From an uncultured Cellvibrionaceae bacterium (GTDB lineage: Bacteria > Pseudomonadota > Gammaproteobacteria > Pseudomonadales > Cellvibrionaceae), in contig CAYVIB010000030.1 in the NCBI GenBank assembly GCA_964451365.1, positions 4,789 to 68,788 of the forward strand: a DNA stretch of 64,000 bases. The letters run 5' to 3'. The translations under genes were made by a program, and so were the position numbers. The notes under the pieces are model-generated. The model did not search any database. It was not told the DNA's origin and saw nothing but the letters and a program-made list of their open reading frames with translations. This document shows, in pieces, positions 2,065 through 48,337 of this stretch (position 1 is its first letter; every line of letters starts with the position of its first letter).

Positions 2065-3282
2065 CTACAGAAAACTTATAATGCTGTCCAGGCTTTCAAA
2101 AAAATAATGAATATCTTTTTCTGTGTTATATATATAGGCTGATGCCCGGATGACCTGTCCACTACCCGCGGCATTAATATAGGGCTGAGTGCATAAGTGG
2201 CCATTCCTGCACATAATGCCAAACGAGTCGCTCAGGTACCGGGCCACATCGTCAAGTTCGTCATGTCCGGGTATGAACATGCTCATTATGGCCCCGCGAT
2301 CCAGCCCCCGCTCAGGGTTGAGCGGCACAAGGTAATCCCGTTTGAGCGCTTCTTCCAACATTAAATCTCCAAGCTGTTTATCGTGCTCCTGGATTGTGTC
2401 GAAACCAATTTTGTTAAGATAATCCAGAGCCGCACCCAGGCCCAGCACACCTGCAATATGCGGCGTGCCTGCCTCAAACCGGTGAGGAATCTTCCGGAGG
2501 TCATACGATTCCCTTTCCACCCAATCCACCATCCCCCCACCCAATCGATAGGGTGCAAGTGTCTTTAACGCATCCACTTTTCCATATAAAACGCCCACTC
2601 CGGTTGGCCCGAGCATTTTATGAGCAGAAAAGGCAAGAAAATCGACGTCCAATTCACTTACATTGATTCTGCGATGAGGCACGGATTGAGCCGCATCCAC
2701 CACCACTGTTGCACCGGCGGCCTTGGCAAGACCGGTAAGCTCCTTCAGATCAACATAAATTCCCGAAGCATTTGAACAATGCGTTAAAGCGACAACCTTC
2801 GGCCTGAGCTTCAGCAGTTCCTTATAATGGTCGATATCAAATAAATTCCCGTCAGTCAGGTTAACCAGGCGGGTATCCGCTAAATGCAGCCAGGGAAGGA
2901 AATTTGAATGATGCGAATCCTGGAAGCAAACAACAACATCGCGTTTGCTCAAATTGAGTCCATTGGCTACCAGATTAATAGCTTCCGTGGTATTGGCCTG
3001 GAAGATAATTTCGTTCCCTTTGCAGCCCAACAGATTGGCCACTTTGTATCGTGTTTGCTCAAACTGGTTTGAAACTTCTTCGATTGCGACATGTTTTCCG
3101 CGGTGAATATTGGCCGATATACCGAGGTAGTAGCGGCAGATCGCATCCACCATGCACTGGGGTTTTAATGTCGTTGCCGCATTGTCCAGATAAGTCACAA
3201 GCTGACCATCTCGTTGTTGTTCCAGCCCCGGAAAATCCTGTCGGATGGAATGAGCGGCCAGACTAAAATTTAAACTGTTCAA
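2065..3282 (-). CDS. SufS/CsdA-family (group II) cysteine desulfurase, PLP-dependent
   Basis: 405 aa, collinear with E. coli SufS as recalled from memory. It has IRQDFPGL...YLDNAATT at the N-terminus, PLP-lysine motif SAHKMLGPTGVGVLY, RFEAGTP, and a catalytic-Cys loop RNGHLCTQP (SufS RTGHHCAMP). Its ATG overlaps the stop of the upstream PaaK-like gene by 4 nt. Confidence 0.85.
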   Translation of the reverse strand: MNSLNFSLAAHSIRQDFPGLEQQRDGQLVTYLDNAATTLKPQCMVDAICRYYLGISANIHRGKHVAIEEVSNQFEQTRYKVANLLGCKGNEIIFQANTTEAINLVANGLNLSKRDVVVCFQDSHHSNFLPWLHLADTRLVNLTDGNLFDIDHYKELLKLRPKVVALTHCSNASGIYVDLKELTGLAKAAGATVVVDAAQSVPHRRINVSELDVDFLAFSAHKMLGPTGVGVLYGKVDALKTLAPYRLGGGMVDWVERESYDLRKIPHRFEAGTPHIAGVLGLGAALDYLNKIGFDTIQEHDKQLGDLMLEEALKRDYLVPLNPERGLDRGAIMSMFIPGHDELDDVARYLSDSFGIMCRNGHLCTQPYINAAGSGQVIRASAYIYNTEKDIHYFFESLDSIISFL

Positions 3283-4598
3283 ATTTCACCGTCCCCGCTT
3301 TCGCTTACTTCTGACTTTACACATTGAAATTTTCCTGATCGCTCCGTCGCAATATATGAAACGTTTTCATGATCGACCTGCGCGGACTCCCCCAAGAGTT
3401 GGCGCAGATTGTCGACTACTTCCTTCTCCGCTCCATCCGTGTACCCGTCATTTACCATGGTCAGCAGGCTGAACCTGTGCGGAGCATTCTGTACGACCTG
3501 AAACAGGTCGAGCCAGCGGGGCGCACCCACTGCCTGACAAACATCGGCCACTGAAACCAAAGCGTCATCGGCTGTTCTTATTAAGGTCCCCACTCTTCCC
3601 TCCATGCTGACGACCGGCAAGGAGCTGCCACAGGAGCACTGATTGCCACGATAGCGAAAAACATCTCCGGTTTTGTAACGGATATGGGGAATGGCGCCAC
3701 GGTCAAGGCTACTAATATAGAGTTCGCCGATTTCCCCGACGCCGGCATAGTTATCACCTCTTATAATTTCCATAAAATAAACCTGGCTGTTTAAGTGGAG
3801 GGCGCCATGAGAACACTCCAGCGCCAGCCACCCCATTTCGGATGACGAAACCAGTTCGGCCAGTACGATGTTTTGGTGACCGAACGTCTCGAACGCATCC
3901 ATTATCTGGCGCCGGTTCAGCGCATGGGTTGCGGTATAGGTCATCACCACCGGTGCGTTGGGTAAGCTGACCTGTTTCTTCCTGGCGTGCCGCAAAAGGA
4001 AGGCAAAATGCGTCGGGTCGACATAGTAAAGGTCCGGCTGATAATCACATATCTCCTCCAGCGCCCGGTCAAGCAGTTCTTCCGACGTTGTCAGTAAATC
4101 GTGATAAACCGGAAGAACGAGCGTACCATCGCTCAACATCCTGTCTTCCCGAGTACTGTTTGGATTCGCACACTCAACATCGGAACAGTTGGGTGCGGCA
4201 TAACGGCAAATTTTCCTCGGCGCACGGGTAAAAGCCTGCTCCACGCTCCGGTTGACCCGGGTACATTCGATCGCGCGGGCCAAAAGGAGCATCCCGACTT
4301 CGAAGGTCACCAGTCGTTCTCCCGAGGTGCCCGAACTCTGGCTGCGAACCAGGCTTTCGTCGCTCAGGGAAAATCCTTTCGCGATGACCCCAACGGGAAA
4401 ATTTTTCCTGTAATCTTTCTTTTCCGTGCAGGGAATATCCATGACATCCTCGACAAAAAGGATATCGTCCGGCGTTAAACCGCTTTGCTCCAGATGTTTC
4501 CGGTAAAAGGGGACATTGGAATAAGCGTAATTAAGCTCTTTCAGAAAGGCATCGAACTGCGTCTCAGTAAACATTTCTCTCCTGACATCTACACTCAC
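3279..4598 (-). CDS. PaaK/CapK/coenzyme-F390-synthetase-like adenylate-forming enzyme
   Basis: 439 aa with N-terminal VPFYRKHLEQSGLTPDDI...IPCTEKKDYRKNFP and P-loop-like SSGTSGERLV. It also has YKTGDVFRY followed by a CSCG motif, as in phenylacetate-CoA-ligase-type enzymes. A 4-nt overlap links it to the terminal NRPS gene. Confidence 0.7.
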   Translation of the reverse strand: MSVDVRREMFTETQFDAFLKELNYAYSNVPFYRKHLEQSGLTPDDILFVEDVMDIPCTEKKDYRKNFPVGVIAKGFSLSDESLVRSQSSGTSGERLVTFEVGMLLLARAIECTRVNRSVEQAFTRAPRKICRYAAPNCSDVECANPNSTREDRMLSDGTLVLPVYHDLLTTSEELLDRALEEICDYQPDLYYVDPTHFAFLLRHARKKQVSLPNAPVVMTYTATHALNRRQIMDAFETFGHQNIVLAELVSSSEMGWLALECSHGALHLNSQVYFMEIIRGDNYAGVGEIGELYISSLDRGAIPHIRYKTGDVFRYRGNQCSCGSSLPVVSMEGRVGTLIRTADDALVSVADVCQAVGAPRWLDLFQVVQNAPHRFSLLTMVNDGYTDGAEKEVVDNLRQLLGESAQVDHENVSYIATERSGKFQCVKSEVSESGDGEI

Positions 4599-7500
4599 TG
4601 TTCAATTTCCGCCGGGGAAACCACTATCGGATTTAATCGACTGATTATCTTTGCCGCCAGACTGCCGGCATACTTCTCGTAGACCATATCCATGTGCTCA
4701 CCTTCCGCCGGCATCACATTAATTTTACCGCCGGTAACTTTATCCCAATCAAGATATGGGCTGGGGTTTACCTGATTTACATTGGTTCGAAACAGCTCGA
4801 TATCCAGCGAGGAAGACACGGGCTCGTACTGATCCATCACTTGCGGGAAAGTGATCAGCGCCTGCAAGTGGCGGTTTACAACGTCATCCTCGACGCCCTC
4901 GGGCTTGAGTCCCTGCTGGTTGATTGCTTTAACAAGACGCTGAATGGCCTTTTGTTCCGACTGACCCCTGATGCTTTCCCAATCGAACTCCAGGTCCTCC
5001 TGATAAAGCCCTTCAATCTTAAAGTACGGATTTTCCCGGTATAAATCCTCCTGCGCGCCACTTACACGATACGGCTGATCCAATATGCCCAAAAATGCCA
5101 CGTTATCTCCAGCTTTTTCAAACTGCCGGCCAATTTCATAAGCGACGGTACCACCAGACGACCAGCCCAACAGTCGATAAGGTCCCGCTGGTTGAATACG
5201 CTTGATTATGGAAATATAAAAACTTGCCAATCCTTCGATTGAAGTGGTGGTTATGTCTGTGTAGAGATCGGGTAACTGAAGTCCGTAAAATTGCGCTGAA
5301 TTCTCGAGTTGCTTTGCCAGTGGCTGATAGACCAGGGAAGAACCGGAAACCGGTGGCATGCCGAAAACAATGAAACCCGATTCCGACTCATTCAGCTTAA
5401 TCGCGATACGGTCAAGAACTGCCGGTTCAATATCCAAACCCAGTCTGGCGTACAAATCCCGTTCAGTATACCGGTTTTTGCTGTGCATGATTATTCGACG
5501 CAGCTCATTGATAAAGTCCCGGCCAAACGCCAGGATATCTTCTTCCCGATACCGGTTTGTACAAAACCGGAGGCTCACTTTAAATTTTTTGTCCAGAACC
5601 ATACTATCCACGGACAGCGCGTGCGGGGGAACATAGTCTTCTCCCACATCGTCGCCGTACGCTTCGTCAGCCAGGGAAAGCAGTGCACTAGATGCAAATA
5701 TCTGGTCGACACTGCCCAGATAATTAAACAGCAGTTGCGCGAATGGCTCGGCTCGTATGTCTGTTGTCGCGACAAAATGCTTTACAAGTCCATAACCCAA
5801 ACCTTTGTCGGGCAAGCTTCTATATTGTTGTTTGACGCTACTGATCAAGCTGTCCAGTTCTTCGTGCGTGGAAGAAACGTAGAATGGGAATTTACTTGTA
5901 AACCAGCCAATGGTTTCACTTATATCCGGGCTTTCTTCCAGTGGCTCCCTGCCATGCCCTTCCATGAGAAACCGACATCGATCGATACCGGTTCGCTTTC
6001 TCACCGCCAGGAACAAGCCTGTCAATAAAATTTCGTTGATGTCGGCATTTAGTGCCTGAGGCGCGGCTTTCAATAAATAAGAACTCTCGCCCGCCTCAAG
6101 CTCAACGGTTACGGACTTTCGTTTCGCAAGCGGCGTCGTTGCAGCGATGGCGGGAGCGCCCGGAAATAAGTCGGGTACGTCAGTTGCTACCTGGGCTTCC
6201 CAGAATTCGATTTGCCTTGCGAACTTCCCGGTTGTTGCATAACCCTCCAGGAACTCTGCCCAAGTCTGGTATGATGAAGTACGCGGTGGCAGTGACAGGG
6301 TCTCCCCTTTGATCAACTGTTGGCATCCCAACTGAAGATCACTAACCAGTATCCGCCATGATACACCATCAATAACAAGATGATGCGCAATAAGCAGCAG
6401 CCTTCCCTCTTCCTCCTGGCCAAAATCAAAATAGACCAACCGGAAAAGGCCGCCATTTTCCAGATCAAAACTCTGCTGGTACCTGCTTCCGACGTTCTGG
6501 ATAGTTTGTTTACGTTCCTCCTCCGCGGTGTCCGCAAGATTGTGATAATGGAAAATCTCGCCGAGCAGGTCGCGATCGAGGTCTTTATAAAAAGCTCTCC
6601 ATTTATCGGGTGCATCGGTTTTGAAAGCGAGCCGGAAAACATCGTGTCGTTTTAGCAGCGCATGGGCAAGCTGTCGAACACGGGGCCGAGTCAGGCCTGG
6701 AGGGACGGTAATCAACAATGACTGGTTGAAATGGTTCCTGGCGCCGAGAGAAGACAGCAGGAAATCCCGCTGAATCGGCAACAGGACTTGTTCGCCTTTC
6801 GCATCCTCGACAATCGCCTGCTGTCTTTCCGCCTTGCGCGCGATCTCCGCCAGACTTGCCACTGTCTTGGCGGTAAACACATCCCGGACACTTATGAAAA
6901 TATTATTCCGCTTTGCCCTGGCGACCACTTGCATCGATAAAATTGAATCTCCACCCAGATGGAAAAAATTGTCGTGAATTCCGACAACGCTGATATTCAG
7001 GACCGACGACAAAATGTCGCAAAGTGTTTTTTCGATCTCGTCGCGTGGCTGACCTTTCGCACCCGACTCCGCCAAGGCCTGGGGGATCGGCAGAGCACCA
7101 CGATCGACTTTGCCGGATACGGTAAGTGGAAGTTCGGTTAATATTACGAAAGCATCCGGCACCATATACTGCGGTAAGGCACTCTCCAGCGCGGCACGAA
7201 CCGCTTCCGGGTCCGTATCAGTGGCGTTGCCCCTTGGAACGAAATAGGCCGTAAGCTGTTTCCCAACCGCGGTGTCTGTCAGGGTGGCTACGGCATCCTC
7301 AACGTCCGCCAGCCCTTTCAGCGCATGCTCGACCTCACCCAGTTCGATCCGGTAGCCACGATGCTTTATCTGTGAGTCGTCACGCCCGAGGAAAACCAGC
7401 CGACCATCACTCAGCTGCTTGACCTTGTCCCCGGTGCGATAAAGAAATGCAGATACGTCGGGTCGAATTCGATTTTCAATGAAGTTTTCCGATGTCAGTC

Positions 7501-10500
7501 GATCCCGGTTTAGATAGCCGAGCGCAACGCAAGGTCCGCCAATAAATAATTCGCCGGCTGAACCCGGTCGCACTTCCGACAGATTTTCATCCAACACGAA
7601 GCACGCAGCATTAATTAACGGTTTCCCGATATTAACCGGCTGTCCGCACGCAATTACAGCGTAACAGGCGTTTACCGTCGCTTCGGTCGGACCATACGCG
7701 TTAATGGCCTTTTTTCCGTGACGCGAGCAGTATCGGCCAATTCTTTCCCAGGTGTCTTGAGTTATGTCCTCACCGCTCGATATCAGGTTCACCGCAAAAT
7801 CCGGCTCATGCTCAAGCACATCGATAACCTGACTGACCATTCGCGGTACGCTGTTGAATACATTTACCCCAGTATGTTTCATTAGCGCTACCAATGCGGC
7901 GGGGTCCCTGCTTTGCTCATCGCTGGCAAGCACGACTTTTCGACCGGCTATTAGCGAAACGAGGCCTTTGATCGACGCATCGAACGCATAGGAAGCATTC
8001 CATAACCAGGGGGCATCATCTGTCAGGTTGAGCTGCGCCAACTGCTCCCGAAAACCATGGTAAAAACTGTCGACGCATGAATGGCTAACCATTACTCCCT
8101 TGGGTGTCCCGGTCGTTCCGGAAGTGTAAATGATATATGCAAGCGCTTCCGCTTCGTCACCCTTGGCGGAAATATGCAGATTATCTTCGACGTAATTGGA
8201 AAGCGTTTCTTGGAGTGCGATGTCGTCGAGGCAAAGCCGAGTTTGACCCGGAAACGCGGAAACCTGAGAAGAACAGGTGATAACCGCCGACAACTCAGCA
8301 TCGATGGCAATAAATTTTTTGCGGCTGTCCGGTAAGCTCGTATCAATAGGTACGTAGGCCGCACCTGATTTTAAGGCTGCCAGAATGGCTACCACCAGGT
8401 CGATGGACCTTGGCAGGCAAATGCCCACCCTTTTCCCGTCCGGGCTGATATGTTCCGCCAGGTAATGAGCGAGCCGATTGGCTTGCGCATTCAGTTCGCT
8501 AAAGGTCAGTTGATGCGATTCGAATACCAACGCCGTATCGCCGGCTTTGTCCAATGCAGCCTGTTCGAACCGATAATGTATTGTCTCTCTCTTTTGTTGC
8601 AATACCTTTGATAGTGCGTCGTAGCGATTTGTGGATACTTCCCGTTCCTGTTGCAGGGAAGCAAAGCGTGGTGTCGGAACCTTCGCTTTCAAATCGCTTA
8701 TCTCAACATCGTTACCGGTATCCAGCGCTTCGACCACAACATCCAAAACCTCTTGGATATGAGCCAGAATCGCACCAGCTTCTGCTTTAGCAGCTGTTTT
8801 CAGGTTAAGCTCAAACTCGCCATCAATATCGCTCACACCCAGAGAAAGCGGATAATTGGTTCGTTCGCGCGAATCAATAATTTCGATATCGTTCAACTCC
8901 CCTTCGGCTTCATTATCCGAAAGTAACGCAGGGGCGGCGTGACGGTAATTAAGAATGGAAGTAAACAGCGGCGCATCTTTCGGCACGCCGCTGCATCGCT
9001 GCGCGGTCACCAGCGACGTTTGCTCGTGGGCGACAAGCTCCACCAATATATTCCTGATCCCGGTATAGACTTCCGACAGACGTCTGTTGTCCAGCTTAAC
9101 GCGTATTGGCAAAGTATTGATAAACAGCCCCACGGCTTTATCGATACCGTCAATACCCTGCTGGCGTCCCGAGAGTACAGTACCAAAAACAACATCGTCG
9201 CGTCCGCATAACGAGGAAACAACCATTGAAAACACGGTGTGAAATAAAACAGCCGGGCTGCAGCTCATGCGTTGACTAATGGCGCGAATGGATGCTGCCG
9301 TTTTGCCTGGCACGAACTCCACCACTTCGGCAATTTCAGTATTCCCCTGGATGTCGGTCAATCCCAAAGGCGTTGTCGCTTCGCTGACGTCTTCAAGCAT
9401 GCCGCGGAAAAAAGGTAGCGCGTGACCAGCAACGGACTGATCCCGTACTCTTTCCACAAACTGCCGATACGGTGCGGGCGTCGCAAGTTTGCCCGTTAGC
9501 CCCAATCGGTAGAGCTGTAATTCATCGCTAAGAATTTCCAGAACCAGGTGATCAGTAACGATATGGTGATACGCCAGAATAACGTCATACTGATCATTGG
9601 ATTGTGTTGCATAGAGCTTTATCAGGGGCGCCTGCTCCAGCGCTATTCTTTGCCTTCGCACGTGGCGTTCCAGTTGTGCCAACGCCGAATCACCCGATTG
9701 AACGGTGATAACTTCGACCGCCAGTTGAGCGGCACGCATTACGACTTGCACCGGCTTGGTGATGCCCTGCCAAAACACAGCTGTCCTGAGCATTTCGTGC
9801 CGGGCAATGATGAAGTTAAGTCCATCAATCAACTCCCGATACGCTTTATCGCCTTTTACCTTTAACATCGACAGTAAGATATAGGGGTCGTCTTCCCGAT
9901 CCATCAGGTGATGAAACAGAATACCTTCCTGCAGGTGCGACAATGGGAAAATATCCTCGATATTCTCCGCACCGCCCGGAACCCTGGAAACAATATAATC
10001 CAGATCCCCGGAGTCGAGTCGGACCAGGTCCAGCATATCGGCGGTGATTGCCGTACACCCTTGCGGTATGCCGGGTTTTGATTCAACCGGTGATTTTGCG
10101 GTCCGCAGACGATCGATTTTGGCCGCCATGGCCGCAAGGTCGGCAGCGCCGTAAACCTCTTTAAGTTCAATTGAATAGCCTTTTTCCCGAAGGCGACTCA
10201 ACATTTTAATCACGAGAATCGAGTGGCCACCCAACCTGAAAAAATTATCCGCTTTACCTGCCGACTCGATTTTAAGCAGTTCCCGCCATACGTCCGAAAG
10301 AACAATTTCCGTCTCTGTCCGTGGTGGTAGATATTTACCGGCGCGCAACGCACAGCCAGGTTCCGGCAACGCCTTGTAATTTATTTTGCCATTGGCGGTA
10401 AGCGGAAAAGCCTCCAGCACGACAAAGGCGGACGGAACCATGTATTCAGGCAGCGTATCCTGAAGCCGCGAGCGAAGCACATCCTCCAGTTGTTGCTCAT

Positions 10501-13486
10501 CCAACCCACTTTGCGCGGGAACCACATACGCAACCAGTTGCGCATCACCCGACGGACTTTGACACACTTTGGCCAAACCCGAATCCACTTCCGCGCAGGC
10601 GTTAAGCTGCGCCGTAATCTCACCCAGTTCGATTCGAAAACCGCGCAGTTTGACCTGATCATCCAGCCGGCCCAGGTATTCCAGGTTTCCATCCGCGCGG
10701 TAGCGCACCAGATCTCCTGTCTTATACAGCTTTTCTCCCGGCGAAAAGGGATGCTCGACAAATCTTTCCGCCGTCAGGTCCGGCCGGTTCAGGTAACCCC
10801 TGGCCAAACCGACGCCGCCAATGTACAACTCCCCTTCCGCGCCGGCCGGACACAAACGCATGGCCATATCGAGCACGAACAGGGCGATATTCTGGATCGG
10901 CCGGCCTATGGGAACCGAGTAACTGGAATCGCCCTGCCGGCAGTGATAGTACGTCACGTCAATTGCCGCTTCGGTCGGACCGTACAGGTTGTGCAATTGC
11001 ACATGGGATGCCTGCCGGTGAAACTCCGACACCTGGTTCGCCGTCAGCGCTTCTCCGCTGCAAAACACATAACGCACCTGCTGGCCAAACCGGCTCTGTT
11101 CATGCTTCAGGTAAAGCTCCAGCATCGACGGAACAAAATGCATGACCGTCACTGATTTTTCCCCGATAAGCTCGCTCAGATAATCCGGGTCCTTGTGCCC
11201 CGCCGGTCGGGCAACCACCAGGGTCGCGCCGTAACAGAGCGGCCACAGAAATTCCCAGACCGACACATCGAAACTGAAGGGGGTTTTCTGCAGCACCCGA
11301 TCCTGTGCATTGAGTTGATATGCGTTTTGCATCCATTCGATACGGTTAACCAACGCCCGGTGCGACACCATGACGCCCTTGGGAGTACCGGTCGAACCCG
11401 AGGTGTAAATGACATATGCCAGATTTGTTGGCCCTTGAACGGGCAGCCGTGGCAGGTTTTCGGTATTGAAGCCCTCCACCTGCGCTTTAAAACCGGCCGA
11501 GTCCAGTTCAACCAAATTGACATTCACCAGTGCGCGATATTGTTCCACCAGGTGGCTTTGGGTCAGCACCAGTGATACGCGTGCTTCGCCCGCCATGTAT
11601 TCGATCCGGGCAAAGGGATAATCCGGGTCGAGCGGCACATAGGCACCACCGGCTTTCAATACCGCCACAATGGCCACGACCATGTCCGCCGAACGCTCAA
11701 GCGCCAATCCCACCAGGCTGTCCGCTCCGACTCCCTGTTGACGCAGGTAACCCGCCAGTTGATTGGCCCGCTCGTTTAACTGCCGGTAGGTTAAACCGGT
11801 GGATTCAAATTGCACCGCCACCTGTTCCGGTGTTTGACGAACCCGCGCCTCGAACAGCTCGTGAATCTGTTTGTCCGCTGAATAATCCCGCCGTGTTTCG
11901 TTAAGTTCCTGTATCAGGTAATGGCGTTCGCGCGACGGCAGCATTTCCAGCTCGCTCAGACTGGCCGCCGGTTGGCGCACCATATTCTCCAGCAGGCACT
12001 GCATGTGCCCGCTTAGCTGTTGAATGTGGGAGCGGGTAAAAAGACTTTTATCGAATGTCCAACTCAGCAGTAAACCATCATCCAACACCGCCAGATCAAC
12101 GGACAAATCAAATTTCGCAAAAACCTCTTCGTCTTCTACCCGGCTGAAGCGGGTATCGGCAATGGTATGGTCGCTGCCGGACGCCTTCCCCTGTGCTGTC
12201 GCCATTGACAACATGATTTGAAACAGCGGTGAACGCGCGGTACTGCGCTCCACTCTCAGCCGCTCAACCAACTGGTCAAACGACACATCCTGGTTTTTCT
12301 GCGCAAGAATGTTAATTTGTCGAATGTTCTCCAGATAATCCGGCAACGTAGAAAAATCTGTATTTGCCCGCAACACCAGCGTGTTGACAAAAAAGCCAAC
12401 GAGGTCCTGGGTTTCCGGGCGCTGGCGATTGGCGACAGTAGTACCAATGACGATGTCGTGGTTGTTTTTATGACGGGACAACACCAGGCACAACGCCGCA
12501 TGAACAAGCATAAACGTGGTGAGGTTAAATCGCCTCGCCAAACTTTCCAGCGAGTTGCCAAGTTCAGCCGAAAGCCTGCACCTGATAATGTCTCCTTCAA
12601 AAGATTTGTGCTCCGGTCGCGGAAAGTCCAGAGGTAGTGTGTTTTCCGGGGCAATGCTTTCAAGGTGACGGTCCCAGTATTCATATTGCGATTTAATGCT
12701 TTCTTCCTGAAAAAACTCCCTCTGCCAGTGCGCGTAATCGGCGTACTGGATCGGCAACGGTGGCAGTGGATCGGGTTCGGAATTTTTCGCCGATTTATAC
12801 TGAACAATGAACTCCCTGTTCAATATATCCATGGACCATCCGTCCGATGCGATATGGTGTATATTGAACAGCAGGCAACCTTCTTCCTCACTGGTTTTAA
12901 TATAGGAGCACCTGATCAACAAATCCCGGCTGATATCAAATGTGCGCAGGGCATCCTGTTGAATGAGGTTCCGTAATTCTTTCTTCCGCTCTTGCGGTGA
13001 CAGGGCCGAAATATCCCGGCAACTGATTTTAAACGTTGTGTAATCCTGTATAATCTGCACAGGCCCTTCATCTTCCTCGCGGAAAATCGTGCGCAGGCTT
13101 TCGTGTCTCCTGATAATCCGCCCAAGCGCCAATTCCGCGGCAATCAAATCGAATGCCCCCTCCACGTGAAGCGCCATGGGCATATTGTACTCGGCGCTAC
13201 TGCCGTTAAGCCTGTCCAGGAACCAAAGACGTTGCTGGGTGAAAGACAACTTCGCAACGCCGCGATTTTTCCTTGCGAGGGGAATGGCACCGGCCAAAAA
13301 TGCATTGGTTCCGCCCGCTCCCTCATCTAAGAGTGCAATGAGTTCGGATTTGTACTGCTTTATCAAACTCGACAGTTCATCAGTCAAAGCGCCGTTTTTC
13401 GCCTTATACTTAAGCTTCTCTGATTCAACGTACAAATAAATACCGTTTTCAGAAGCTTTTTCAAATACGCTTTGTGCGTCCATCAA
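4595..13486 (-). CDS. NRPS, modules 8-9: dock-C-A(Ser)-T-C(atypical)-A(?)-T-E-TE
   Basis: 2963-aa ORF. Motifs in order: TubC-like docking (aa 1-55), C HHIASDGWS, A LAYVIYTSGSTGTPKG (code DVWHFSLID = Ser), T FFRLGGHS, C HHIVTDH. Then A LAYIIYTSGTTGTPKG (code DAKNISAVN, unassigned), T FFHLGGDSI (GGDSI is typical before E), E HHLVIDGVSW, TE GWSSGG. It has ATGA overlaps at both ends. Confidence 0.95.
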   Translation of the reverse strand: MMDAQSVFEKASENGIYLYVESEKLKYKAKNGALTDELSSLIKQYKSELIALLDEGAGGTNAFLAGAIPLARKNRGVAKLSFTQQRLWFLDRLNGSSAEYNMPMALHVEGAFDLIAAELALGRIIRRHESLRTIFREEDEGPVQIIQDYTTFKISCRDISALSPQERKKELRNLIQQDALRTFDISRDLLIRCSYIKTSEEEGCLLFNIHHIASDGWSMDILNREFIVQYKSAKNSEPDPLPPLPIQYADYAHWQREFFQEESIKSQYEYWDRHLESIAPENTLPLDFPRPEHKSFEGDIIRCRLSAELGNSLESLARRFNLTTFMLVHAALCLVLSRHKNNHDIVIGTTVANRQRPETQDLVGFFVNTLVLRANTDFSTLPDYLENIRQINILAQKNQDVSFDQLVERLRVERSTARSPLFQIMLSMATAQGKASGSDHTIADTRFSRVEDEEVFAKFDLSVDLAVLDDGLLLSWTFDKSLFTRSHIQQLSGHMQCLLENMVRQPAASLSELEMLPSRERHYLIQELNETRRDYSADKQIHELFEARVRQTPEQVAVQFESTGLTYRQLNERANQLAGYLRQQGVGADSLVGLALERSADMVVAIVAVLKAGGAYVPLDPDYPFARIEYMAGEARVSLVLTQSHLVEQYRALVNVNLVELDSAGFKAQVEGFNTENLPRLPVQGPTNLAYVIYTSGSTGTPKGVMVSHRALVNRIEWMQNAYQLNAQDRVLQKTPFSFDVSVWEFLWPLCYGATLVVARPAGHKDPDYLSELIGEKSVTVMHFVPSMLELYLKHEQSRFGQQVRYVFCSGEALTANQVSEFHRQASHVQLHNLYGPTEAAIDVTYYHCRQGDSSYSVPIGRPIQNIALFVLDMAMRLCPAGAEGELYIGGVGLARGYLNRPDLTAERFVEHPFSPGEKLYKTGDLVRYRADGNLEYLGRLDDQVKLRGFRIELGEITAQLNACAEVDSGLAKVCQSPSGDAQLVAYVVPAQSGLDEQQLEDVLRSRLQDTLPEYMVPSAFVVLEAFPLTANGKINYKALPEPGCALRAGKYLPPRTETEIVLSDVWRELLKIESAGKADNFFRLGGHSILVIKMLSRLREKGYSIELKEVYGAADLAAMAAKIDRLRTAKSPVESKPGIPQGCTAITADMLDLVRLDSGDLDYIVSRVPGGAENIEDIFPLSHLQEGILFHHLMDREDDPYILLSMLKVKGDKAYRELIDGLNFIIARHEMLRTAVFWQGITKPVQVVMRAAQLAVEVITVQSGDSALAQLERHVRRQRIALEQAPLIKLYATQSNDQYDVILAYHHIVTDHLVLEILSDELQLYRLGLTGKLATPAPYRQFVERVRDQSVAGHALPFFRGMLEDVSEATTPLGLTDIQGNTEIAEVVEFVPGKTAASIRAISQRMSCSPAVLFHTVFSMVVSSLCGRDDVVFGTVLSGRQQGIDGIDKAVGLFINTLPIRVKLDNRRLSEVYTGIRNILVELVAHEQTSLVTAQRCSGVPKDAPLFTSILNYRHAAPALLSDNEAEGELNDIEIIDSRERTNYPLSLGVSDIDGEFELNLKTAAKAEAGAILAHIQEVLDVVVEALDTGNDVEISDLKAKVPTPRFASLQQEREVSTNRYDALSKVLQQKRETIHYRFEQAALDKAGDTALVFESHQLTFSELNAQANRLAHYLAEHISPDGKRVGICLPRSIDLVVAILAALKSGAAYVPIDTSLPDSRKKFIAIDAELSAVITCSSQVSAFPGQTRLCLDDIALQETLSNYVEDNLHISAKGDEAEALAYIIYTSGTTGTPKGVMVSHSCVDSFYHGFREQLAQLNLTDDAPWLWNASYAFDASIKGLVSLIAGRKVVLASDEQSRDPAALVALMKHTGVNVFNSVPRMVSQVIDVLEHEPDFAVNLISSGEDITQDTWERIGRYCSRHGKKAINAYGPTEATVNACYAVIACGQPVNIGKPLINAACFVLDENLSEVRPGSAGELFIGGPCVALGYLNRDRLTSENFIENRIRPDVSAFLYRTGDKVKQLSDGRLVFLGRDDSQIKHRGYRIELGEVEHALKGLADVEDAVATLTDTAVGKQLTAYFVPRGNATDTDPEAVRAALESALPQYMVPDAFVILTELPLTVSGKVDRGALPIPQALAESGAKGQPRDEIEKTLCDILSSVLNISVVGIHDNFFHLGGDSILSMQVVARAKRNNIFISVRDVFTAKTVASLAEIARKAERQQAIVEDAKGEQVLLPIQRDFLLSSLGARNHFNQSLLITVPPGLTRPRVRQLAHALLKRHDVFRLAFKTDAPDKWRAFYKDLDRDLLGEIFHYHNLADTAEEERKQTIQNVGSRYQQSFDLENGGLFRLVYFDFGQEEEGRLLLIAHHLVIDGVSWRILVSDLQLGCQQLIKGETLSLPPRTSSYQTWAEFLEGYATTGKFARQIEFWEAQVATDVPDLFPGAPAIAATTPLAKRKSVTVELEAGESSYLLKAAPQALNADINEILLTGLFLAVRKRTGIDRCRFLMEGHGREPLEESPDISETIGWFTSKFPFYVSSTHEELDSLISSVKQQYRSLPDKGLGYGLVKHFVATTDIRAEPFAQLLFNYLGSVDQIFASSALLSLADEAYGDDVGEDYVPPHALSVDSMVLDKKFKVSLRFCTNRYREEDILAFGRDFINELRRIIMHSKNRYTERDLYARLGLDIEPAVLDRIAIKLNESESGFIVFGMPPVSGSSLVYQPLAKQLENSAQFYGLQLPDLYTDITTTSIEGLASFYISIIKRIQPAGPYRLLGWSSGGTVAYEIGRQFEKAGDNVAFLGILDQPYRVSGAQEDLYRENPYFKIEGLYQEDLEFDWESIRGQSEQKAIQRLVKAINQQGLKPEGVEDDVVNRHLQALITFPQVMDQYEPVSSSLDIELFRTNVNQVNPSPYLDWDKVTGGKINVMPAEGEHMDMVYEKYAGSLAAKIISRLNPIVVSPAEIEQ
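4598..5400 (-). other. Thioesterase (TE) release domain of the terminal NRPS (approximate bounds)
   Basis: GxSxG nucleophile GWSSGG is encoded at 5150-5167. It is preceded by VFGMPPVSGSSLVYQPLA (alpha/beta-hydrolase start). This is the last domain of the ORF. Confidence 0.85.
5480..6800 (-). other. Epimerization (E) domain directly upstream of the TE (approximate bounds)
   Basis: HHLVIDGVSWRIL is encoded at about 6355-6387 (HHxxxDxVSW is E-type). It begins LLPIQRDFL, and the upstream carrier domain has the E-partner motif GGDSI. Confidence 0.8.
8650..9960 (-). other. Atypical condensation domain (HHIVTDH) between Ser module 8 and module 9 (approximate bounds)
   Basis: N-terminus is FPLSHLQEGILFHHLMDREDD, which is DCL/dual-E/C-like (LSxxQEGxLFH plus an HH-L-xxxx-DD element). 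The active site AYHHIVTDHLVLE is encoded at about 9546-9572 and lacks the G-W-S found in the other seven C domains. Confidence 0.7.
10354..12028 (-). repeat. Copy 1 of a 1,675-bp perfect direct repeat (C-domain tail + C-A linker + whole Ser A domain, module 8)
   Basis: Hand alignment at offset 3,470 nt. Identity starts at agccaggttccggcaac (10354/13824) and ends at gcttagctgttgaatgtg (12028/15498). Every ORF-track entry in the two intervals is duplicated with identical translation. Confidence 0.95.
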
Positions 13487-16400
13487 AATTCTCCTTCCTC
13501 AACAAGTCCGGAACATGCTATTTCCTCATGCAGCCGGTCGTTTTTCTCCTTCAGCCTGTTTTGGCGAATTACCTCCGCCATATTCGACAGAACGGGATTT
13601 TCAAATACGTCGAATACATTCATCGGATACCTGGACAAGTCATATTGCTTGTTTATTTTTGCCACCAGTTTCACCGATAATAGTGAGTGACCGCCAGAGC
13701 GAAAAAAATGCTGGCTGCGACTGATCTGTTCTTTATTAAGCAGGAGCAGTTCAGACCATACGACTGCCAAGTGGTTTTCGAATTCATTGCCCGGCGCTTC
13801 ATACTCCGCCTCCTGAACAAGATAGCCAGGTTCCGGCAACGCCTTGTAATTTATTTTGCCATTGGCGGTAAGCGGAAAAGCCTCCAGCACGACAAAGGCG
13901 GACGGAACCATGTATTCAGGCAGCGTATCCTGAAGCCGCGAGCGAAGCACATCCTCCAGTTGTTGCTCATCCAACCCACTTTGCGCGGGAACCACATACG
14001 CAACCAGTTGCGCATCACCCGACGGACTTTGACACACTTTGGCCAAACCCGAATCCACTTCCGCGCAGGCGTTAAGCTGCGCCGTAATCTCACCCAGTTC
14101 GATTCGAAAACCGCGCAGTTTGACCTGATCATCCAGCCGGCCCAGGTATTCCAGGTTTCCATCCGCGCGGTAGCGCACCAGATCTCCTGTCTTATACAGC
14201 TTTTCTCCCGGCGAAAAGGGATGCTCGACAAATCTTTCCGCCGTCAGGTCCGGCCGGTTCAGGTAACCCCTGGCCAAACCGACGCCGCCAATGTACAACT
14301 CCCCTTCCGCGCCGGCCGGACACAAACGCATGGCCATATCGAGCACGAACAGGGCGATATTCTGGATCGGCCGGCCTATGGGAACCGAGTAACTGGAATC
14401 GCCCTGCCGGCAGTGATAGTACGTCACGTCAATTGCCGCTTCGGTCGGACCGTACAGGTTGTGCAATTGCACATGGGATGCCTGCCGGTGAAACTCCGAC
14501 ACCTGGTTCGCCGTCAGCGCTTCTCCGCTGCAAAACACATAACGCACCTGCTGGCCAAACCGGCTCTGTTCATGCTTCAGGTAAAGCTCCAGCATCGACG
14601 GAACAAAATGCATGACCGTCACTGATTTTTCCCCGATAAGCTCGCTCAGATAATCCGGGTCCTTGTGCCCCGCCGGTCGGGCAACCACCAGGGTCGCGCC
14701 GTAACAGAGCGGCCACAGAAATTCCCAGACCGACACATCGAAACTGAAGGGGGTTTTCTGCAGCACCCGATCCTGTGCATTGAGTTGATATGCGTTTTGC
14801 ATCCATTCGATACGGTTAACCAACGCCCGGTGCGACACCATGACGCCCTTGGGAGTACCGGTCGAACCCGAGGTGTAAATGACATATGCCAGATTTGTTG
14901 GCCCTTGAACGGGCAGCCGTGGCAGGTTTTCGGTATTGAAGCCCTCCACCTGCGCTTTAAAACCGGCCGAGTCCAGTTCAACCAAATTGACATTCACCAG
15001 TGCGCGATATTGTTCCACCAGGTGGCTTTGGGTCAGCACCAGTGATACGCGTGCTTCGCCCGCCATGTATTCGATCCGGGCAAAGGGATAATCCGGGTCG
15101 AGCGGCACATAGGCACCACCGGCTTTCAATACCGCCACAATGGCCACGACCATGTCCGCCGAACGCTCAAGCGCCAATCCCACCAGGCTGTCCGCTCCGA
15201 CTCCCTGTTGACGCAGGTAACCCGCCAGTTGATTGGCCCGCTCGTTTAACTGCCGGTAGGTTAAACCGGTGGATTCAAATTGCACCGCCACCTGTTCCGG
15301 TGTTTGACGAACCCGCGCCTCGAACAGCTCGTGAATCTGTTTGTCCGCTGAATAATCCCGCCGTGTTTCGTTAAGTTCCTGTATCAGGTAATGGCGTTCG
15401 CGCGACGGCAGCATTTCCAGCTCGCTCAGACTGGCCGCCGGTTGGCGCACCATATTCTCCAGCAGGCACTGCATGTGCCCGCTTAGCTGTTGAATGTGCG
15501 ATTCGCTAAAGATGTCGGCATCGTATTCCCAGGCGATGGCCAGATAATCGCCGGAACGGTAGGCATTTATGCTCAGGTCGAATCGGGCCGCAACGTCATC
15601 CAGCACGATCGGGGTGAATTCCACCTCGGACAATAAGCTGCCCCGATCAACCCCCGCACCGAACCCCATATCCAGCGTTAACATAATCTGAAACAAAGGA
15701 GAATGAGATGACGATCTTTCCACGTTCAACTGTTCAAGAAGATACTCGAATGGCACATCCTGATTGGCTTGGGCTTCGATATTAACGTTCCTGATCTGCT
15801 GCCAGAAATCGTGCAATTCGTTAGACGACGCACGGTTACACGACGTATCCGTTCGCAGCACCACCGTATTGACAAAGAAACCGATGAGCGTTTCAAGTTC
15901 GGGCCGTTGCCGATTCGCCACCGGGGTACCTATCACGATATCGTCTGTGTTGCCGTGTCTCGATAAGAGCAGGCTCAGGGCGCCATGCAACAGCATAAAT
16001 AAAGTAACGCCATGTTTATTCGCGTACTGCTGCAAGTCATTGACGCGGGCAACCTGACCAGCAGTGTATAAGCGGCCCAGGTAACGTTTTTGTAGAGGCC
16101 GGGCGTTATCTAGCCGTAGCTTGTGTGACTGCGGCGCATCCGCCAGTTGCTTCCGCCAATAATTAACCTGGCTTTCGAGCGCCCCATTATCCAGCCATTC
16201 CCGCTGCCAGTGAGCGAAATCCACGTATTGGACCTGCAAGGGCGGCAGGTGCGCGGCTTCGTGTTTTTGCAACGCTTGATAAAGTGTTAAAAACTCGCGT
16301 TTCAAAATTTCCATGGACCAGCCATCGGTCGCAATATGGTGCATGTTAAATATCAATACGCCTTCCTTGGATTCACGTGGGTCCAAGCGGATAAACGACG

Positions 16401-16986
16401 CTCTGAGCATTAAATCGCTGGAAAGGTCGAAAGGAGTTTGCGCATCCCGGATGATCAGGTCGCGGATGGCCACATCCCTCCCGGATGAACCAGCGACACC
16501 ATCCAATTCGACCACATCCAGTTTAAATTGAAAGTCGCCGCGGACGACCTGGAAAGGCTCACCCTCTTCCTCCACAAAAACAGTACGCAAAGGCTCGTGA
16601 CGTCGCACGATTTCCGATATTGCCCTTTTCGCCGTGTCTTCGCAAAACTGCCCGCTTACCTTAAGCGCCATCGGCATGTTGTACTCACAGCTTTGACCTT
16701 GCAGTCGGTCGATAAACCAGAGACGTTGCTGTGGAAAAGAGAGCATAAACCGGTTGGCTTCCTCTCTGCCAATCGGTCTTATAGGGTTGCCGTGACTACG
16801 ACGCTGGCCTGAAGCAGGCACGGTCGAGAAGTAATCCAGAATTTTCTGTTTGTTCTCCCGGATTAATTCAATATCCTCCGCCGTGGCGACGCCTTTGGCG
16901 GCTTTGACTTTAAGTTCGCCACCCAGCACGGATACCAAAATTCCCTTTTCAATGAAAGAATCCAGGAGCTTACCGATGTCCATCAT
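13483..16986 (-). CDS. NRPS, module 7: dock-C-A(Ser)-T
   Basis: 1167 aa with TubC-like docking MMDIGKLLDSFIEKGILVSVLGGELKVKAAKG. Motifs: C HHIATDGWS, A code DVWHFSLID, T FFRSGGHS, acidic C-terminal tail LVEEGEF. It has ATGA overlaps with both neighbours. Confidence 0.95.
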   Translation of the reverse strand: MMDIGKLLDSFIEKGILVSVLGGELKVKAAKGVATAEDIELIRENKQKILDYFSTVPASGQRRSHGNPIRPIGREEANRFMLSFPQQRLWFIDRLQGQSCEYNMPMALKVSGQFCEDTAKRAISEIVRRHEPLRTVFVEEEGEPFQVVRGDFQFKLDVVELDGVAGSSGRDVAIRDLIIRDAQTPFDLSSDLMLRASFIRLDPRESKEGVLIFNMHHIATDGWSMEILKREFLTLYQALQKHEAAHLPPLQVQYVDFAHWQREWLDNGALESQVNYWRKQLADAPQSHKLRLDNARPLQKRYLGRLYTAGQVARVNDLQQYANKHGVTLFMLLHGALSLLLSRHGNTDDIVIGTPVANRQRPELETLIGFFVNTVVLRTDTSCNRASSNELHDFWQQIRNVNIEAQANQDVPFEYLLEQLNVERSSSHSPLFQIMLTLDMGFGAGVDRGSLLSEVEFTPIVLDDVAARFDLSINAYRSGDYLAIAWEYDADIFSESHIQQLSGHMQCLLENMVRQPAASLSELEMLPSRERHYLIQELNETRRDYSADKQIHELFEARVRQTPEQVAVQFESTGLTYRQLNERANQLAGYLRQQGVGADSLVGLALERSADMVVAIVAVLKAGGAYVPLDPDYPFARIEYMAGEARVSLVLTQSHLVEQYRALVNVNLVELDSAGFKAQVEGFNTENLPRLPVQGPTNLAYVIYTSGSTGTPKGVMVSHRALVNRIEWMQNAYQLNAQDRVLQKTPFSFDVSVWEFLWPLCYGATLVVARPAGHKDPDYLSELIGEKSVTVMHFVPSMLELYLKHEQSRFGQQVRYVFCSGEALTANQVSEFHRQASHVQLHNLYGPTEAAIDVTYYHCRQGDSSYSVPIGRPIQNIALFVLDMAMRLCPAGAEGELYIGGVGLARGYLNRPDLTAERFVEHPFSPGEKLYKTGDLVRYRADGNLEYLGRLDDQVKLRGFRIELGEITAQLNACAEVDSGLAKVCQSPSGDAQLVAYVVPAQSGLDEQQLEDVLRSRLQDTLPEYMVPSAFVVLEAFPLTANGKINYKALPEPGYLVQEAEYEAPGNEFENHLAVVWSELLLLNKEQISRSQHFFRSGGHSLLSVKLVAKINKQYDLSRYPMNVFDVFENPVLSNMAEVIRQNRLKEKNDRLHEEIACSGLVEEGEF
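13824..15498 (-). repeat. Copy 2 of the 1,675-bp perfect direct repeat (module 7)
   Basis: Same evidence as copy 1. The encoded peptide runs from HIQQLSGHMQCLLENM... to ...ANGKINYKALPEPG in both NRPS proteins. Flanking C and T sequences differ. Confidence 0.95.
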
Positions 16987-19900: not shown

Positions 19901-20420
19901 CCGCCAATACCGCTTCACACTCCGTTTCAACATCGGAACCTGCCGGAATGTTCACAAGGTCGACCCTGAAATCGAACGAATCCTTGATTTTCTGGACCGG
20001 TCCCGCGCTGGTATTTATGTAAACGGTGCGGAGTATCTCATGACGTTGTATAACCTTGGCAAATGCCTCCGAAAGAATGTCCACATTCACAAGCCCCATC
20101 ACGTCATAACTGACAACCATGTTGTACTGGTTGCTACCCCCGCCCAACTGGTCTATAAACCATAGCCTTTGTTGAGAGAATGAAAGCGGAAGATCGCCTG
20201 TTCTTCTTGCCTTTGTAATGGGAGGCTGATAACCAGAAGTGCCCGGTGTATCCAGTTTGGCAAGAAGCGAAACCAACACGGTTTTGTTCTCACGAATTTG
20301 CATAGCCATTTCATCGGTGATAGCACCTGCCTGGCTACGGGTTTTGAGCCTGCCGTTTTCCAGATAGACTTTAATTCCGGCTTCCTTCAGTGACGACAAC
20401 AACTTCAGCGCATCATTCAT
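16983..20420 (-). CDS. NRPS, module 6: dock-C-A(Cys-type)-T
   Basis: I start it at ATG 20418-20420 (MNDALKLLSSLKEAGIKVYLENGRLK, a docking domain), 1 nt after the TGA (20422-20424) of the upstream gene. Motifs: C HHIASDGWS, A LAYVIFTSGSTGEPKG with FDLSVYD, code DLYNLSLVW (Cys consensus DLYNLSLIW), T FFDIGGHS, tail DAEEFLI. Confidence 0.9.
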   Translation of the reverse strand: MNDALKLLSSLKEAGIKVYLENGRLKTRSQAGAITDEMAMQIRENKTVLVSLLAKLDTPGTSGYQPPITKARRTGDLPLSFSQQRLWFIDQLGGGSNQYNMVVSYDVMGLVNVDILSEAFAKVIQRHEILRTVYINTSAGPVQKIKDSFDFRVDLVNIPAGSDVETECEAVLADEVGYTFNLSRDLMLRATYIKLPSVDATGILLINIHHIASDGWSLEILVREFFACYAAVSESREVDLPPLVLQYADYACWQRNADSQSLYARQLQYWDGQLKNVAPVHNLPLNGSRSMERTFRGDEVRGRLESSIAAKLEDLAIKWQVTPFMLFHAALCIVIARHTNSHEVIIGTPVANRPNAELQSMIGFFVNTVVLKINTDFEDLRSYLEHVRTTHLEAQENQDIPFDKLVEELNVARRADVTPLFQIMLTTVNEFSPGGAHKNEITLPGVALRERGHPCVAARFDLEFDISLTDTGISTKVIYDTDLFEQRYVERINQHVINTLTEIANRPQVKLRQIDFLSDAERRLLLEASPGEQVERPAHCLHEFFLRQVVKQPDGIALYDADGYMTYSELFVYAYSFYLYLKELKLEVESLVAVRLPKGRWQLIATLAIMMSGCAYLPLEVRWPNARCQRVLAKSGCSYMFVSSPEDAIEGVGSILVNDIVIADIDAVTTAGALPRRAGPDNLAYVIFTSGSTGEPKGVAIEHGAAVNTLLDINARYQVSASDKILAASLLTFDLSVYDFFGLLAAGGRVVIPEDGRTIDPEHWLTLVEQEGVTLWNTVPLSAALLADQLDYKNRQCTAPLRHILMSGDWIDVKLPARLRHKFPRAHLHSLGGATECSVWSIHYPIEGDTDSWRSIPYGKPLSNQAFYILDQELQLTPLGVAGELFIAGDGLAREYYGDQALTEKAFFHHPTLGSRLYRTGDLGRYLPDGNIEFLGRADHQVKIRGYRIELGEIENTIGGFGEVDSCVVTTREDSTNQKRLIAYIKPIAGAVGDAAALRAALSTTLPNYMVPDAIVPVESWPLSSNGKLDKSALPDPADFFTTCDYVEAKTDTEKELVQIWSTLLDLKENVISVTSGFFDIGGHSLLAIRLVAAINNIYPGAVNIQNVFSHGSIRSIAELIDRNLSLVKLEKEISQTQDAEEFLI

Positions 20421-20421
20421 A

Positions 20422-34728: not shown

Positions 34729-34731
34729 ATA

Positions 34732-37959: not shown

Positions 37960-38017
37960 TGTCTCGCCATACCGCGTTTAAGTTTATAGTTATTCCAGAA
38001 AGCGCTTTTTCCTTCGC

Positions 38018-44469: not shown

Positions 44470-44543
44470 TTATATATACACATAACAGTCACAAGAACCT
44501 ATCTCCTAATTGTCGATGGCTATCACAATATTGCTGAGGATCC

Positions 44544-44577: not shown

Positions 44578-44600
44578 AGCGTGGTGCCTATGTTGAATCC

Positions 44601-48329: not shown

Positions 48330-48337
48330 TCCGGGTT

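Follow-up and report, generated by a model that had tools for sequence, protein, structure and literature searches.

A PaaK-like/SufS-like gene pair co-inherited with non-ribosomal peptide synthetase clusters, and a candidate role in sulfur transfer

What might a cysteine desulfurase and a PaaK-like adenylating enzyme contribute to a non-ribosomal peptide? The question is raised by a 64-kb stretch of DNA from an uncultured Cellvibrionaceae bacterium (64,000 nucleotides, referred to in its entirety as the window), in which two minus-strand open reading frames (ORFs) follow the last gene of a non-ribosomal peptide synthetase (NRPS) operon. The first (3279..4574, minus strand) encodes a PaaK/CapK-fold adenylate-forming (ANL) enzyme of 431 aa, and the second (2065..3282, minus strand) encodes a SufS/CsdA-type (type II) cysteine desulfurase of 405 aa that starts with TTG. 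Both ORFs, and the identity of the upstream gene as the last NRPS gene, were found where a sequence-only reading of the window had put them; that reading proposed a tailoring pair that introduces extra sulfur into the peptide or a precursor. Here, we report that the pair, hereafter the cassette, is a dedicated accessory inherited along with NRPS clusters and not a housekeeping unit, and we weigh the chemistry that it may carry out.

Co-inheritance of the pair with peptide synthetase clusters

Using 22 aligned PaaK-like sequences as the query, we scanned a single genome of each species and recovered 79 loci other than the window (counts of 80 PaaK-like proteins below refer to 80 sequences). The SufS-like gene lay immediately behind the PaaK-like gene and on the same strand in 77 of the 79 loci, with -15 to 77 nucleotides (nt) separating their aligned parts, and NRPS domains were present within 10 kb of the pair in 76. 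Such pairing is well beyond chance. The exceptions were L015, in which a TauD gene is inserted between the two partners, and L011, which is without a desulfurase but comes from the same metagenome-assembled genome as L017, where the pair is complete. Pairwise identities of the PaaK-like and SufS-like proteins across loci correlated with r = 0.95. Moreover, the tree of the PaaK-like protein tracked cluster architecture and not taxonomy, with Massilia grouping with Streptomyces, and Thalassolituus with Corallococcus.

The cassette spans at least six bacterial phyla. Its carriers are marine Gammaproteobacteria (Rheinheimera, Pseudoalteromonas, Kangiella, Aliikangiella, Pleionea, Thalassomonas, Colwellia, Microbulbifer, a shipworm-symbiont relative, and others), Massilia, Actinomycetota (many Streptomyces, Kitasatospora, and other actinomycetes), Myxococcota (Corallococcus), Longimicrobium, Bacteroidota, and Chloroflexia. 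When the neighbouring ORFs of the 79 loci were clustered, the families recovered were NRPS, TauD, MacAB, PvdQ, ABC exporters, DUF6817, and type II thioesterases (TEII), and no suf, isc, or paa genes were seen among the conserved neighbour families. The expectation that the pair would recur in other NRPS clusters, and would do so away from housekeeping operons, was therefore borne out; the objection that it belongs to such an operon fails because NRPS domains are close by in 76 of the 79 loci and a suf, isc, or paa context is absent.

An exhaustive profile search of 1.84 billion representatives delimited the family further: approximately 35–45 clusters at 50% identity scored as PaaK-like members, followed by a sharp drop. 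No PaaK-SufS fusion was found in this search, only distant relatives that are fused to radical-SAM domains or carry RRE-like extensions. An 825-aa ORF in L071 that resembled such a fusion was rejected as a high-GC frame artefact, the two matches being in different frames. The window pair fits the general pattern, that is, a PaaK-like gene with a PNCSDVEC loop and then a SufS-like gene in an NRPS cluster. Separately, we noted that in Pseudoalteromonas luteoviolacea S2607 (L025, 5300–7640) the cassette-led operon adjoins ParA/RepA and ParB genes together with a tyrosine recombinase; this cluster may reside on a plasmid or a mobile element.

The desulfurase and the adenylating enzyme

The product of ORF 2065–3282 is a class-V (fold type I) pyridoxal 5'-phosphate (PLP) enzyme (Pfam Aminotran_5, 2.8e-110), and its best solved relatives are SufS and CsdA (PDB E-values down to 2e-83). 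It shares the fold and all catalytic motifs with Escherichia coli SufS and CsdA, Bacillus subtilis SufS, and Synechocystis Slr0077. The PLP-lysine motif SAHK222MLGPTG (2599..2628, minus strand) and the loop with the persulfide-forming cysteine, RNGHLC364TQP (2182..2208, minus strand), were both read in the sequence as had been described. The substrate-binding motifs HRGKH, HHSNFLPW, DAAQSVPH, and RASAYIYN are present as well. Across the 79 SufS-like proteins, the PLP lysine, the Cys loop (R.GH.C.QP), HHS..LPW, DAAQS.PH, HRGK, and R.S.Y.Y are each at least 97% conserved; judged by sequence, the motif set of an active type II desulfurase is complete. The enzyme nevertheless departs from its relatives in several respects. 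It scores 404.5 bits against the SufS model TIGR01979 (cut-off 475.1) and 297 bits against the CsdA model NF008126 (cut-off 607), and its short type II loop reads GHLC where RxGHHC is expected, one His being replaced by Leu. Unlike SufS and CsdA, it is not part of a suf or csd operon and has no evident acceptor: SufE, SufU, CsdE, and SufBCD partners were found neither nearby in the window nor among the conserved neighbour families of the 79 loci. Instead, it is paired with a PaaK-like gene in NRPS clusters.

The PaaK-like protein gave weak NCBIfam matches to PaaK and to F390 synthetase, with no match in a local Pfam scan and a precomputed Pfam domain CapK_C. Its scores are far below the PaaK equivalog cut-offs (NF041878, 101 bits against 700; TIGR02155, 79 against 646), and its similarity to F390 synthetases is no higher than that to PaaK. 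An AlphaFold (AF2) model with a predicted local distance difference test score (pLDDT) of 88.6 matched BT_0428 (4r1m) and PaaK1 (2y27) in Foldseek with a template-modelling score (TM) of 0.72, consistent with a two-domain ANL fold. The protein carries SSGTSGERL, CRYAAPNCSDVEC, CSCG, and ERSGK415F. The first of these is the ANL P-loop (residues 80–88; 4311..4337, minus strand), which agrees with the acyl-adenylate P-loop proposed earlier, is conserved in 80 homologues, and has a low pLDDT, as is usual there. The last is the A10 motif (3327..3344, minus strand) with the catalytic lysine of the adenylation half-reaction. The P-loop, RYxTGD, and the SGK lysine are conserved among the 80 PaaK-like proteins, and PNCSDVEC is invariant. 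Fold, P-loop, RYxTGD, and SGK are held in common with PaaK ligases and PaaK-like natural-product ligases (BT_0428, PaaK1/2, NatL2, AjiA1, and ClxA), among which NatL2, AjiA1, and ClxA use the adenylate directly and independently of coenzyme A (CoA). By contrast, the window enzyme is only ~20% identical to this group, lacks a paa operon context, and has the acyl-pocket loop of PaaK replaced by an invariant AAPNCSDVECANP loop.

This family loop, AAPNC130SDVEC135ANP (4161..4199, minus strand), falls in a stretch between the N-terminal block (~residues 4–90) and ~165 that could not be aligned to any solved PaaK by profile or single-sequence searches. By its position in the sequence, it appears to replace the loop that lines the aryl pocket of PaaK1, a placement for which we relied on what we take to be the PaaK1 pocket residues. 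Only two internal segments of the model are of low confidence, the P-loop (80–89) and residues 130–134, the C-terminal tail (426–431) being a third; because residues 130–134 are modelled with a pLDDT below 50, the PNCSDVEC loop is predicted to be mobile. The sequence-only reading had listed extra Cys clusters in this protein, and the distinction between them matters. The AAPNCSDVECANP loop is indeed family-specific, whereas C254, H260, C313, and C315, to which CSCG contributes, also occur in BT_0428 and ClxA. We therefore rejected CSCG as an extra, sulfur-specific cluster, since CSCG, C254, and H260 are found in ordinary PaaK-like structures; the four residues probably form a structural metal site that is not specific to the family. 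Distant PaaK-like relatives keep a CSxxEC-type motif at the position of the Cys loop, hinting that PaaK-like enzymes with such a loop form a broader family involved in peptide maturation. The next-closest relatives (P0161, P0165, P0164, P0166, and P0176) are radical-SAM/SPASM-like fusions or have a PqqD/RRE-like N-terminal extension.

The pair is tightly linked to the synthetase gene, though not exactly as had been claimed. Both genes were said to overlap their upstream neighbours through ATGA; the sequence reads GTGA (4598–4595), a 4-nt overlap of the NRPS stop codon with the mechanical PaaK-like ORF, which runs to GTG 4598, and TTGA (3282–3279), a 4-nt overlap between the PaaK-like stop and the desulfurase start. 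The second overlap stands, since TTG 3282 is the sole ATG, GTG, or TTG start ahead of the conserved N-terminal DFPxL motif in this enzyme. The first probably does not: gene callers use the in-frame ATG at 4574, downstream of AGGAGA, so the PaaK-like gene (431 aa) probably starts 21 nt past the NRPS stop codon. The pair is thus flanked by 21 nt on the NRPS side and 80 nt after the SufS-like gene, with an overlap between its members, and a search for terminators between the genes gave no convincing candidate.

Residue 9 and a proposed sulfur relay

Which residue would such a pair act on? We read the adenylation (A)-domain pockets of the nine NRPS modules by alignment to a GrsA fragment; as a control, the procedure gave DAWTIAAIC for GrsA and recovered the canonical codes for Ser, Thr, Cys, Asp, and Gly. 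Module 1 (DTEDVGAIT) reads as a cationic residue, modules 2, 7, and 8 (each DVWHFSLID) as Ser, modules 3 (DFWNVGMVH) and 5 (DFWNIGMVH, with a methyltransferase (MT) domain) as Thr, and modules 4 (DLYDLSLIW) and 6 (DLYNLSLVW) as Cys. The A domain of module 9 (7082..8566, minus strand) has the pocket DAKNISAVN, which stays unassigned and is the A-domain type that accompanies the cassette. It is encoded by the terminal NRPS gene (4595..13486, minus strand), whose product is ordered C-A(Ser)-T-C-A(DAKNISAVN)-T-E-TE, where C, T, E, and TE denote condensation, thiolation, epimerisation, and thioesterase domains. The last 'condensation' domain (4595–6900, minus strand; NRPS residues ~2225–2700) has the full E2–E7 epimerisation motif set (HHLVIDGVSW, EGHGRE, TIGWFT, GLGYG, and FNYLG), and module 9 was accordingly read as C-A-T-E-TE. 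It follows from this epimerisation domain that residue 9 is probably D-configured before TE release. A thiazoline link was considered and rejected: every C domain of the window has an HHxxxD-type motif and none is a heterocyclisation (Cy) domain, which argues against heterocyclisation.

The pocket and the cassette are linked in both directions in gammaproteobacterial clusters. DAKNISAVN or a near variant adjoins the cassette in 15 gammaproteobacterial loci. The DAKN-type A cores form a clade of their own, with 34–58% core identity to window module 9 and all but one at 40% or above; the closest core outside the clade is also 34% identical, and the remainder are lower. A search with the module-9 A domain retrieved free-standing dock-A-T(-T) proteins with the same pocket, and in the two of them whose contigs extend far enough (P0277 and P0293) CapK_C, Aminotran_5, and TauD genes lie ~3.5 kb downstream, while three more are on contigs equal in length to those of PaaK-like hits; generic A domains saturate the list of this search, and only the top DAKN-type matches are informative. 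The earlier suggestion that the pair serves residue 9 thus gained support from both sides, while its other candidate, residue 1, showed no comparable association. Tandem T domains come after the DAKN A domain in three loci (L015, L017, and L018) and in several free-standing proteins, and either arrangement, tandem T or free-standing A-T(-T), suggests that the residue is tailored in trans. As to its identity, DAKNISAVN retains Lys239 as in the Glu code, which we take to be DAKDLGVVD, and has Asn at the two Asp positions of that code; from this retained lysine we infer an acidic, Glu-like substrate. Separately, the module-9 C domain (~8570–10060, minus strand; NRPS residues ~1140–1640) has an atypical active-site motif, HHIVTDHLV, in place of HHxxxDG. 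Other non-Gly motifs (HHMIIDH, HHLMLDQ, and HHIVSDH) accompany the DAKN A domain in some loci (L001, L019, and L021), though not everywhere, and the idea of one conserved C-domain type at this position was rejected, given that the motifs vary.

Other cluster classes point to an acidic residue as well. Approximately 24 loci from Streptomyces, Kitasatospora, Nonomuraea, and Massilia are organized as A-T-C-A(Cys)-T, DUF6817, C-A(Asp)-T, TauD, PaaK-like, SufS-like, and TEII, with the Asp code DLTKVGHVG in the module directly upstream of TauD-PaaK-SufS. Further cassette loci have the Arg-rich pockets DATRIGRVA and DIPRVGHVG. Eight minimal loci from Streptomyces and Gandjariella (within L067 and L069–L076) comprise a PLP enzyme resembling 3-hydroxy-Asp ammonia-lyase, the PaaK-like and SufS-like proteins, A, T, TauD, an EamA exporter, and TEII; a cluster of the L071 type is probably the simplest system in which to look for the product of the cassette. 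The stand-alone A domain of these clusters has the pocket DFWHYGQVD, and the small T domain is unannotated; in L071 (cluster at 8877–17207), the latter lies at ~14120–14382.

Taking the observed catalytic equipment, its conservation, and these genomic links together, we propose a sulfur relay. The SufS-like enzyme, whose motifs are all present, would draw sulfur from free cysteine, carry it as a persulfide at C364, and pass it to the PaaK-like enzyme at the invariant, putatively mobile loop PNC130SDVEC135. The latter, equipped with the ANL motifs, would spend ATP to adenylate a carboxylate, and attack by the persulfide or sulfide would release AMP and leave a thiocarboxylate or a derivative. 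C135 may act as a resolving cysteine, by analogy with ThiI/MnmA, ThiF-ThiS, and LarE. The likeliest substrate would be the side-chain carboxylate of the acidic, Glu-like residue selected by the DAKNISAVN A domain, that is, residue 9, either as the free amino acid before loading or as the carrier-bound residue; in actinobacterial versions, the equivalent might be Asp or beta-hydroxy-Asp. That an acidic-residue carboxylate is adenylated and converted to a thiocarboxylate or a derivative is our preferred but tentative reading, to which we give somewhat less than even weight. The fully specified form, in which the PaaK-type enzyme is itself a sulfurtransferase that takes the persulfide from its SufS partner on PNCSDVEC and turns a Glu- or Asp-type side-chain carboxylate into a thiocarboxylate, is rather unlikely to be right in every part. 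A thioamide or a polysulfide, both also suggested in the sequence-only reading, is favoured by none of our results.

The proposed logic has precedents. ThiF/MoeB-type E1 enzymes with ThiS/MoaD and IscS, ThiI, or rhodanese, as well as LarE, adenylate and then use persulfide to make a thiocarboxylate. The cassette would share with ThiF-ThiS and LarE an AMP-activated carboxylate attacked by cysteine-derived sulfur with a desulfurase as the source, but it differs in having an ANL fold, not an E1 (Rossmann) or PP-loop fold, and in its presumed substrate, which would be the side chain of an amino acid or a peptide on an NRPS pathway. Nor is there a counterpart of the small carrier: no ORF for a ThiS/MoaD-like protein with a Gly-Gly end fits between or beside the pair (gaps of 21 nt, an overlap, and 80 nt).

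Among natural-product pathways, PtmA3/PtmU4 of thioplatensimycin and TaaJ/TaaI of sulfenicin are two-gene, ANL-based cassettes that convert a carboxylate to a thiocarboxylate (bioRxiv 10.1101/2024.10.16.618611). Their route proceeds through acyl-CoA and a CoA-transferase-type sulfurtransferase, with sulfur from primary-metabolism carriers and no cluster-encoded desulfurase (bioRxiv 10.1101/2024.10.16.618611). The likeness to the window cassette lies in the two-gene format, the role in secondary-metabolite tailoring, and the ANL enzyme; the window cassette differs in that its ANL enzyme is of the PaaK type, the desulfurase is encoded in the cluster, and there is no CoA-transferase. A CoA-transferase was detected neither in the window ORFs that were scanned with Pfam nor in the conserved neighbour families. 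In the literature searched, the only related routes found were the PtmA3/PtmU4-type cassette and the Cy-domain route of thiolactomycin. The pair itself is without a description in the full-text literature searched, from which subscription journals are mostly absent, so earlier work is possible. We therefore regard the cassette as a previously unremarked, widely distributed gene pair that would carry a variant of known chemistry, and propose to call the family the NRPS-associated PaaK-like/SufS-like cassette.

Several points weigh against the proposed relay. C130 and C135 could bind a metal instead of relaying a persulfide, given that CxxxxC also occurs in radical-SAM- or RRE-like PaaK relatives. 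The acidic assignment of DAKNISAVN is built on pocket logic and on known specificity codes. On a carrier-bound residue, a side-chain thioacid would tend to cyclise. We know of no product of any cassette cluster, and none is described in the literature searched. Lastly, 45 of the 79 loci contain a TauD-type hydroxylase, a partner that the sequence-only reading did not foresee; in 37 loci it is an immediate neighbour of the pair, and together with the lyase-like enzyme of one Streptomyces class it hints at beta-hydroxyl chemistry. The plain thiocarboxylate model needs no such chemistry, and the frequency of TauD leaves room for a beta-hydroxyl in place of a carboxylate as the group acted on.

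This last point leads to a first alternative, in which the PaaK-like enzyme adenylylates a beta-hydroxyl, whether made by TauD or native to Ser or Thr, and sulfur displaces AMP or adds after elimination to yield a beta-mercapto residue. Coenzyme F390 synthetases, which belong to the PaaK superfamily, adenylylate a hydroxyl. Besides the TauD counts, this alternative draws on the Streptomyces class in which A, T, TauD, TEII, and the 3-hydroxy-Asp ammonia-lyase-like enzyme lie beside the pair, on the weak F390-synthetase matches of the PaaK-like protein, and on the five Ser/Thr modules of the window peptide. We nevertheless consider it improbable. No TauD was detected in the 64-kb window (E ≤ 1e-5), nor within 10 kb of the pair in L001, L002, L003, and L016; the lysine of carboxylate adenylation (SGK) is invariant; the F390-synthetase similarity is no better than that to PaaK; and the co-occurring pockets with Lys or Arg suit an anionic side chain.

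A second alternative dispenses with sulfur in the product. PaaK-like adenylation would serve to form a lactone, lactam, imide, or isopeptide, and the desulfurase would only activate or maintain its partner, through a Cys-loop persulfide or a metal-sulfur site. A model for this is CsdA-CsdE-TcdA (CsdL) in the formation of ct6A, where CsdA-CsdE is needed for the E1-like dehydratase TcdA and the product is sulfur-free; there, too, a type II desulfurase is genetically coupled to an ATP-dependent carboxylate-adenylating enzyme, though TcdA is E1-like. In keeping with this, the SufS-like protein reaches a good score (297 bits) with CsdA models, the PaaK-like ligases NatL2, AjiA1, and ClxA form esters or amides straight from adenylates, and the CxxxxC motif is also present in relatives. 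Yet strict one-to-one coupling to a complete desulfurase (77 of 79 loci) would be costly for an accessory role, and housekeeping desulfurases could do such a job; this alternative has, in our view, a slim chance.

Sulfur might instead be added to the two Cys residues of modules 4 and 6, giving a tri- or tetrasulfide bridge or a hydropersulfide. Both Cys modules of the window carry ordinary C domains, Cy domains being absent, and Cys modules are also found in the Streptomyces/Massilia and Corallococcus/Thalassolituus classes. Such an outcome is very unlikely: many cassette loci are without a Cys module within 10 kb, the association with DAKN or Asp is much stronger, and an adenylating enzyme has no part in thiol persulfidation. 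Finally, a housekeeping context, that is, a desulfurase of Fe-S assembly or cysteine catabolism and an aromatic-acid CoA ligase that merely adjoin an NRPS, is effectively refuted by synteny and keeps almost no credence, for although both proteins come from large primary-metabolism superfamilies, there are no sufBCDE, isc, or paa genes among the conserved neighbours, scores are below family cut-offs (SufS 404 against 475; PaaK 101 against 700), the family is small, and adjacency and co-evolution are strict.

Neighbouring genes and implications

The pair belongs to a single long minus-strand operon that runs, in order, through an acylase, an exporter, five NRPS genes (nine modules), the PaaK-like gene, the SufS-like gene, and MacA-like and MacB/DarD-like genes. 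The operon upstream of the terminal NRPS gene (13483..42207, minus strand) contains the PvdQ-like acylase gene in first place (39718–42207, minus strand), the ABC exporter gene in second (38018–39721, minus strand), and four NRPS genes for modules 1–7. Immediately 3' of the desulfurase gene is the gene for a MacA-like adaptor (731–1984, minus strand), and behind it that for a MacB/DarD-like ABC ATPase (14–721, minus strand); the same MacA/MacB-like order behind the desulfurase was seen in Rheinheimera (L001) and other marine loci. With a PvdQ-like Ntn acylase and a PvdE-like ABC exporter at its head, a starter C domain in module 1, and a MacAB-like exporter at its end, the operon has an acylase/exporter/starter-C set reminiscent of pyoverdine-type pathways, in which an acylated precursor is exported and then deacylated in the periplasm. 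In L023, L025–27, L029, and L078, this acylase and exporter are found immediately behind the cassette.

Beyond the operon, the genes at 43033–53003 may or may not belong to the NRPS cluster. They encode a glycosyltransferase (43033–44469, plus strand), a DUF899 protein (45458–44601), a sulfatase (47405–45663), an MBL-fold protein (49457–48489), a LytTR regulator (50423–49599), a MATE pump (50826–52208), and a methyltransferase (52230–53003). Further on, a low-GC stretch (0.42–0.46) at 56913–63836 looks like a defence island. It has an SMC/AAA_23 ATPase gene (60641–58638) with a weak match to LmuB of Lamassu and two family-less ORFs downstream, a type II N6/N4 DNA methyltransferase gene (61102–62382), and an AbiJ/Abi_C-like gene (63836–63003). 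At its edge, the ORF at 55488–56318 (minus strand, 276 aa) encodes only the N-terminal domain of an IlvD/Edd dehydratase and is probably a truncated gene remnant.

Apart from cysteine itself, sulfur enters non-ribosomal peptides by few routes, most of which borrow carriers from primary metabolism. As a two-gene marker with a fixed order and an invariant signature, the cassette flags uncharacterised NRPS clusters in at least 79 species of marine Gammaproteobacteria, Streptomyces and relatives, myxobacteria, and others, and the minimal Streptomyces cluster (lyase-like PLP enzyme, PaaK-like, SufS-like, A, T, TauD, exporter, and TE) offers a simple experimental entry. Should the chemistry differ from our proposal, strict co-inheritance would still imply a widely used tailoring step that awaits assignment. 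If the proposed relay is correct, an ANL enzyme would act as a persulfide-dependent thiocarboxylate synthase, which would be new enzymology, and the orphan A-domain code DAKNISAVN would be explained. Genomes could then be mined with the cassette for sulfur-modified peptides and possible metallophores. In its fully specified form, the relay would also define a class of non-ribosomal peptides with thioacid groups that has so far gone unrecognised and extends over at least six phyla; such peptides may be soft-metal chelators, in view of the two Cys residues and of the acylase and exporter of pyoverdine-like type.

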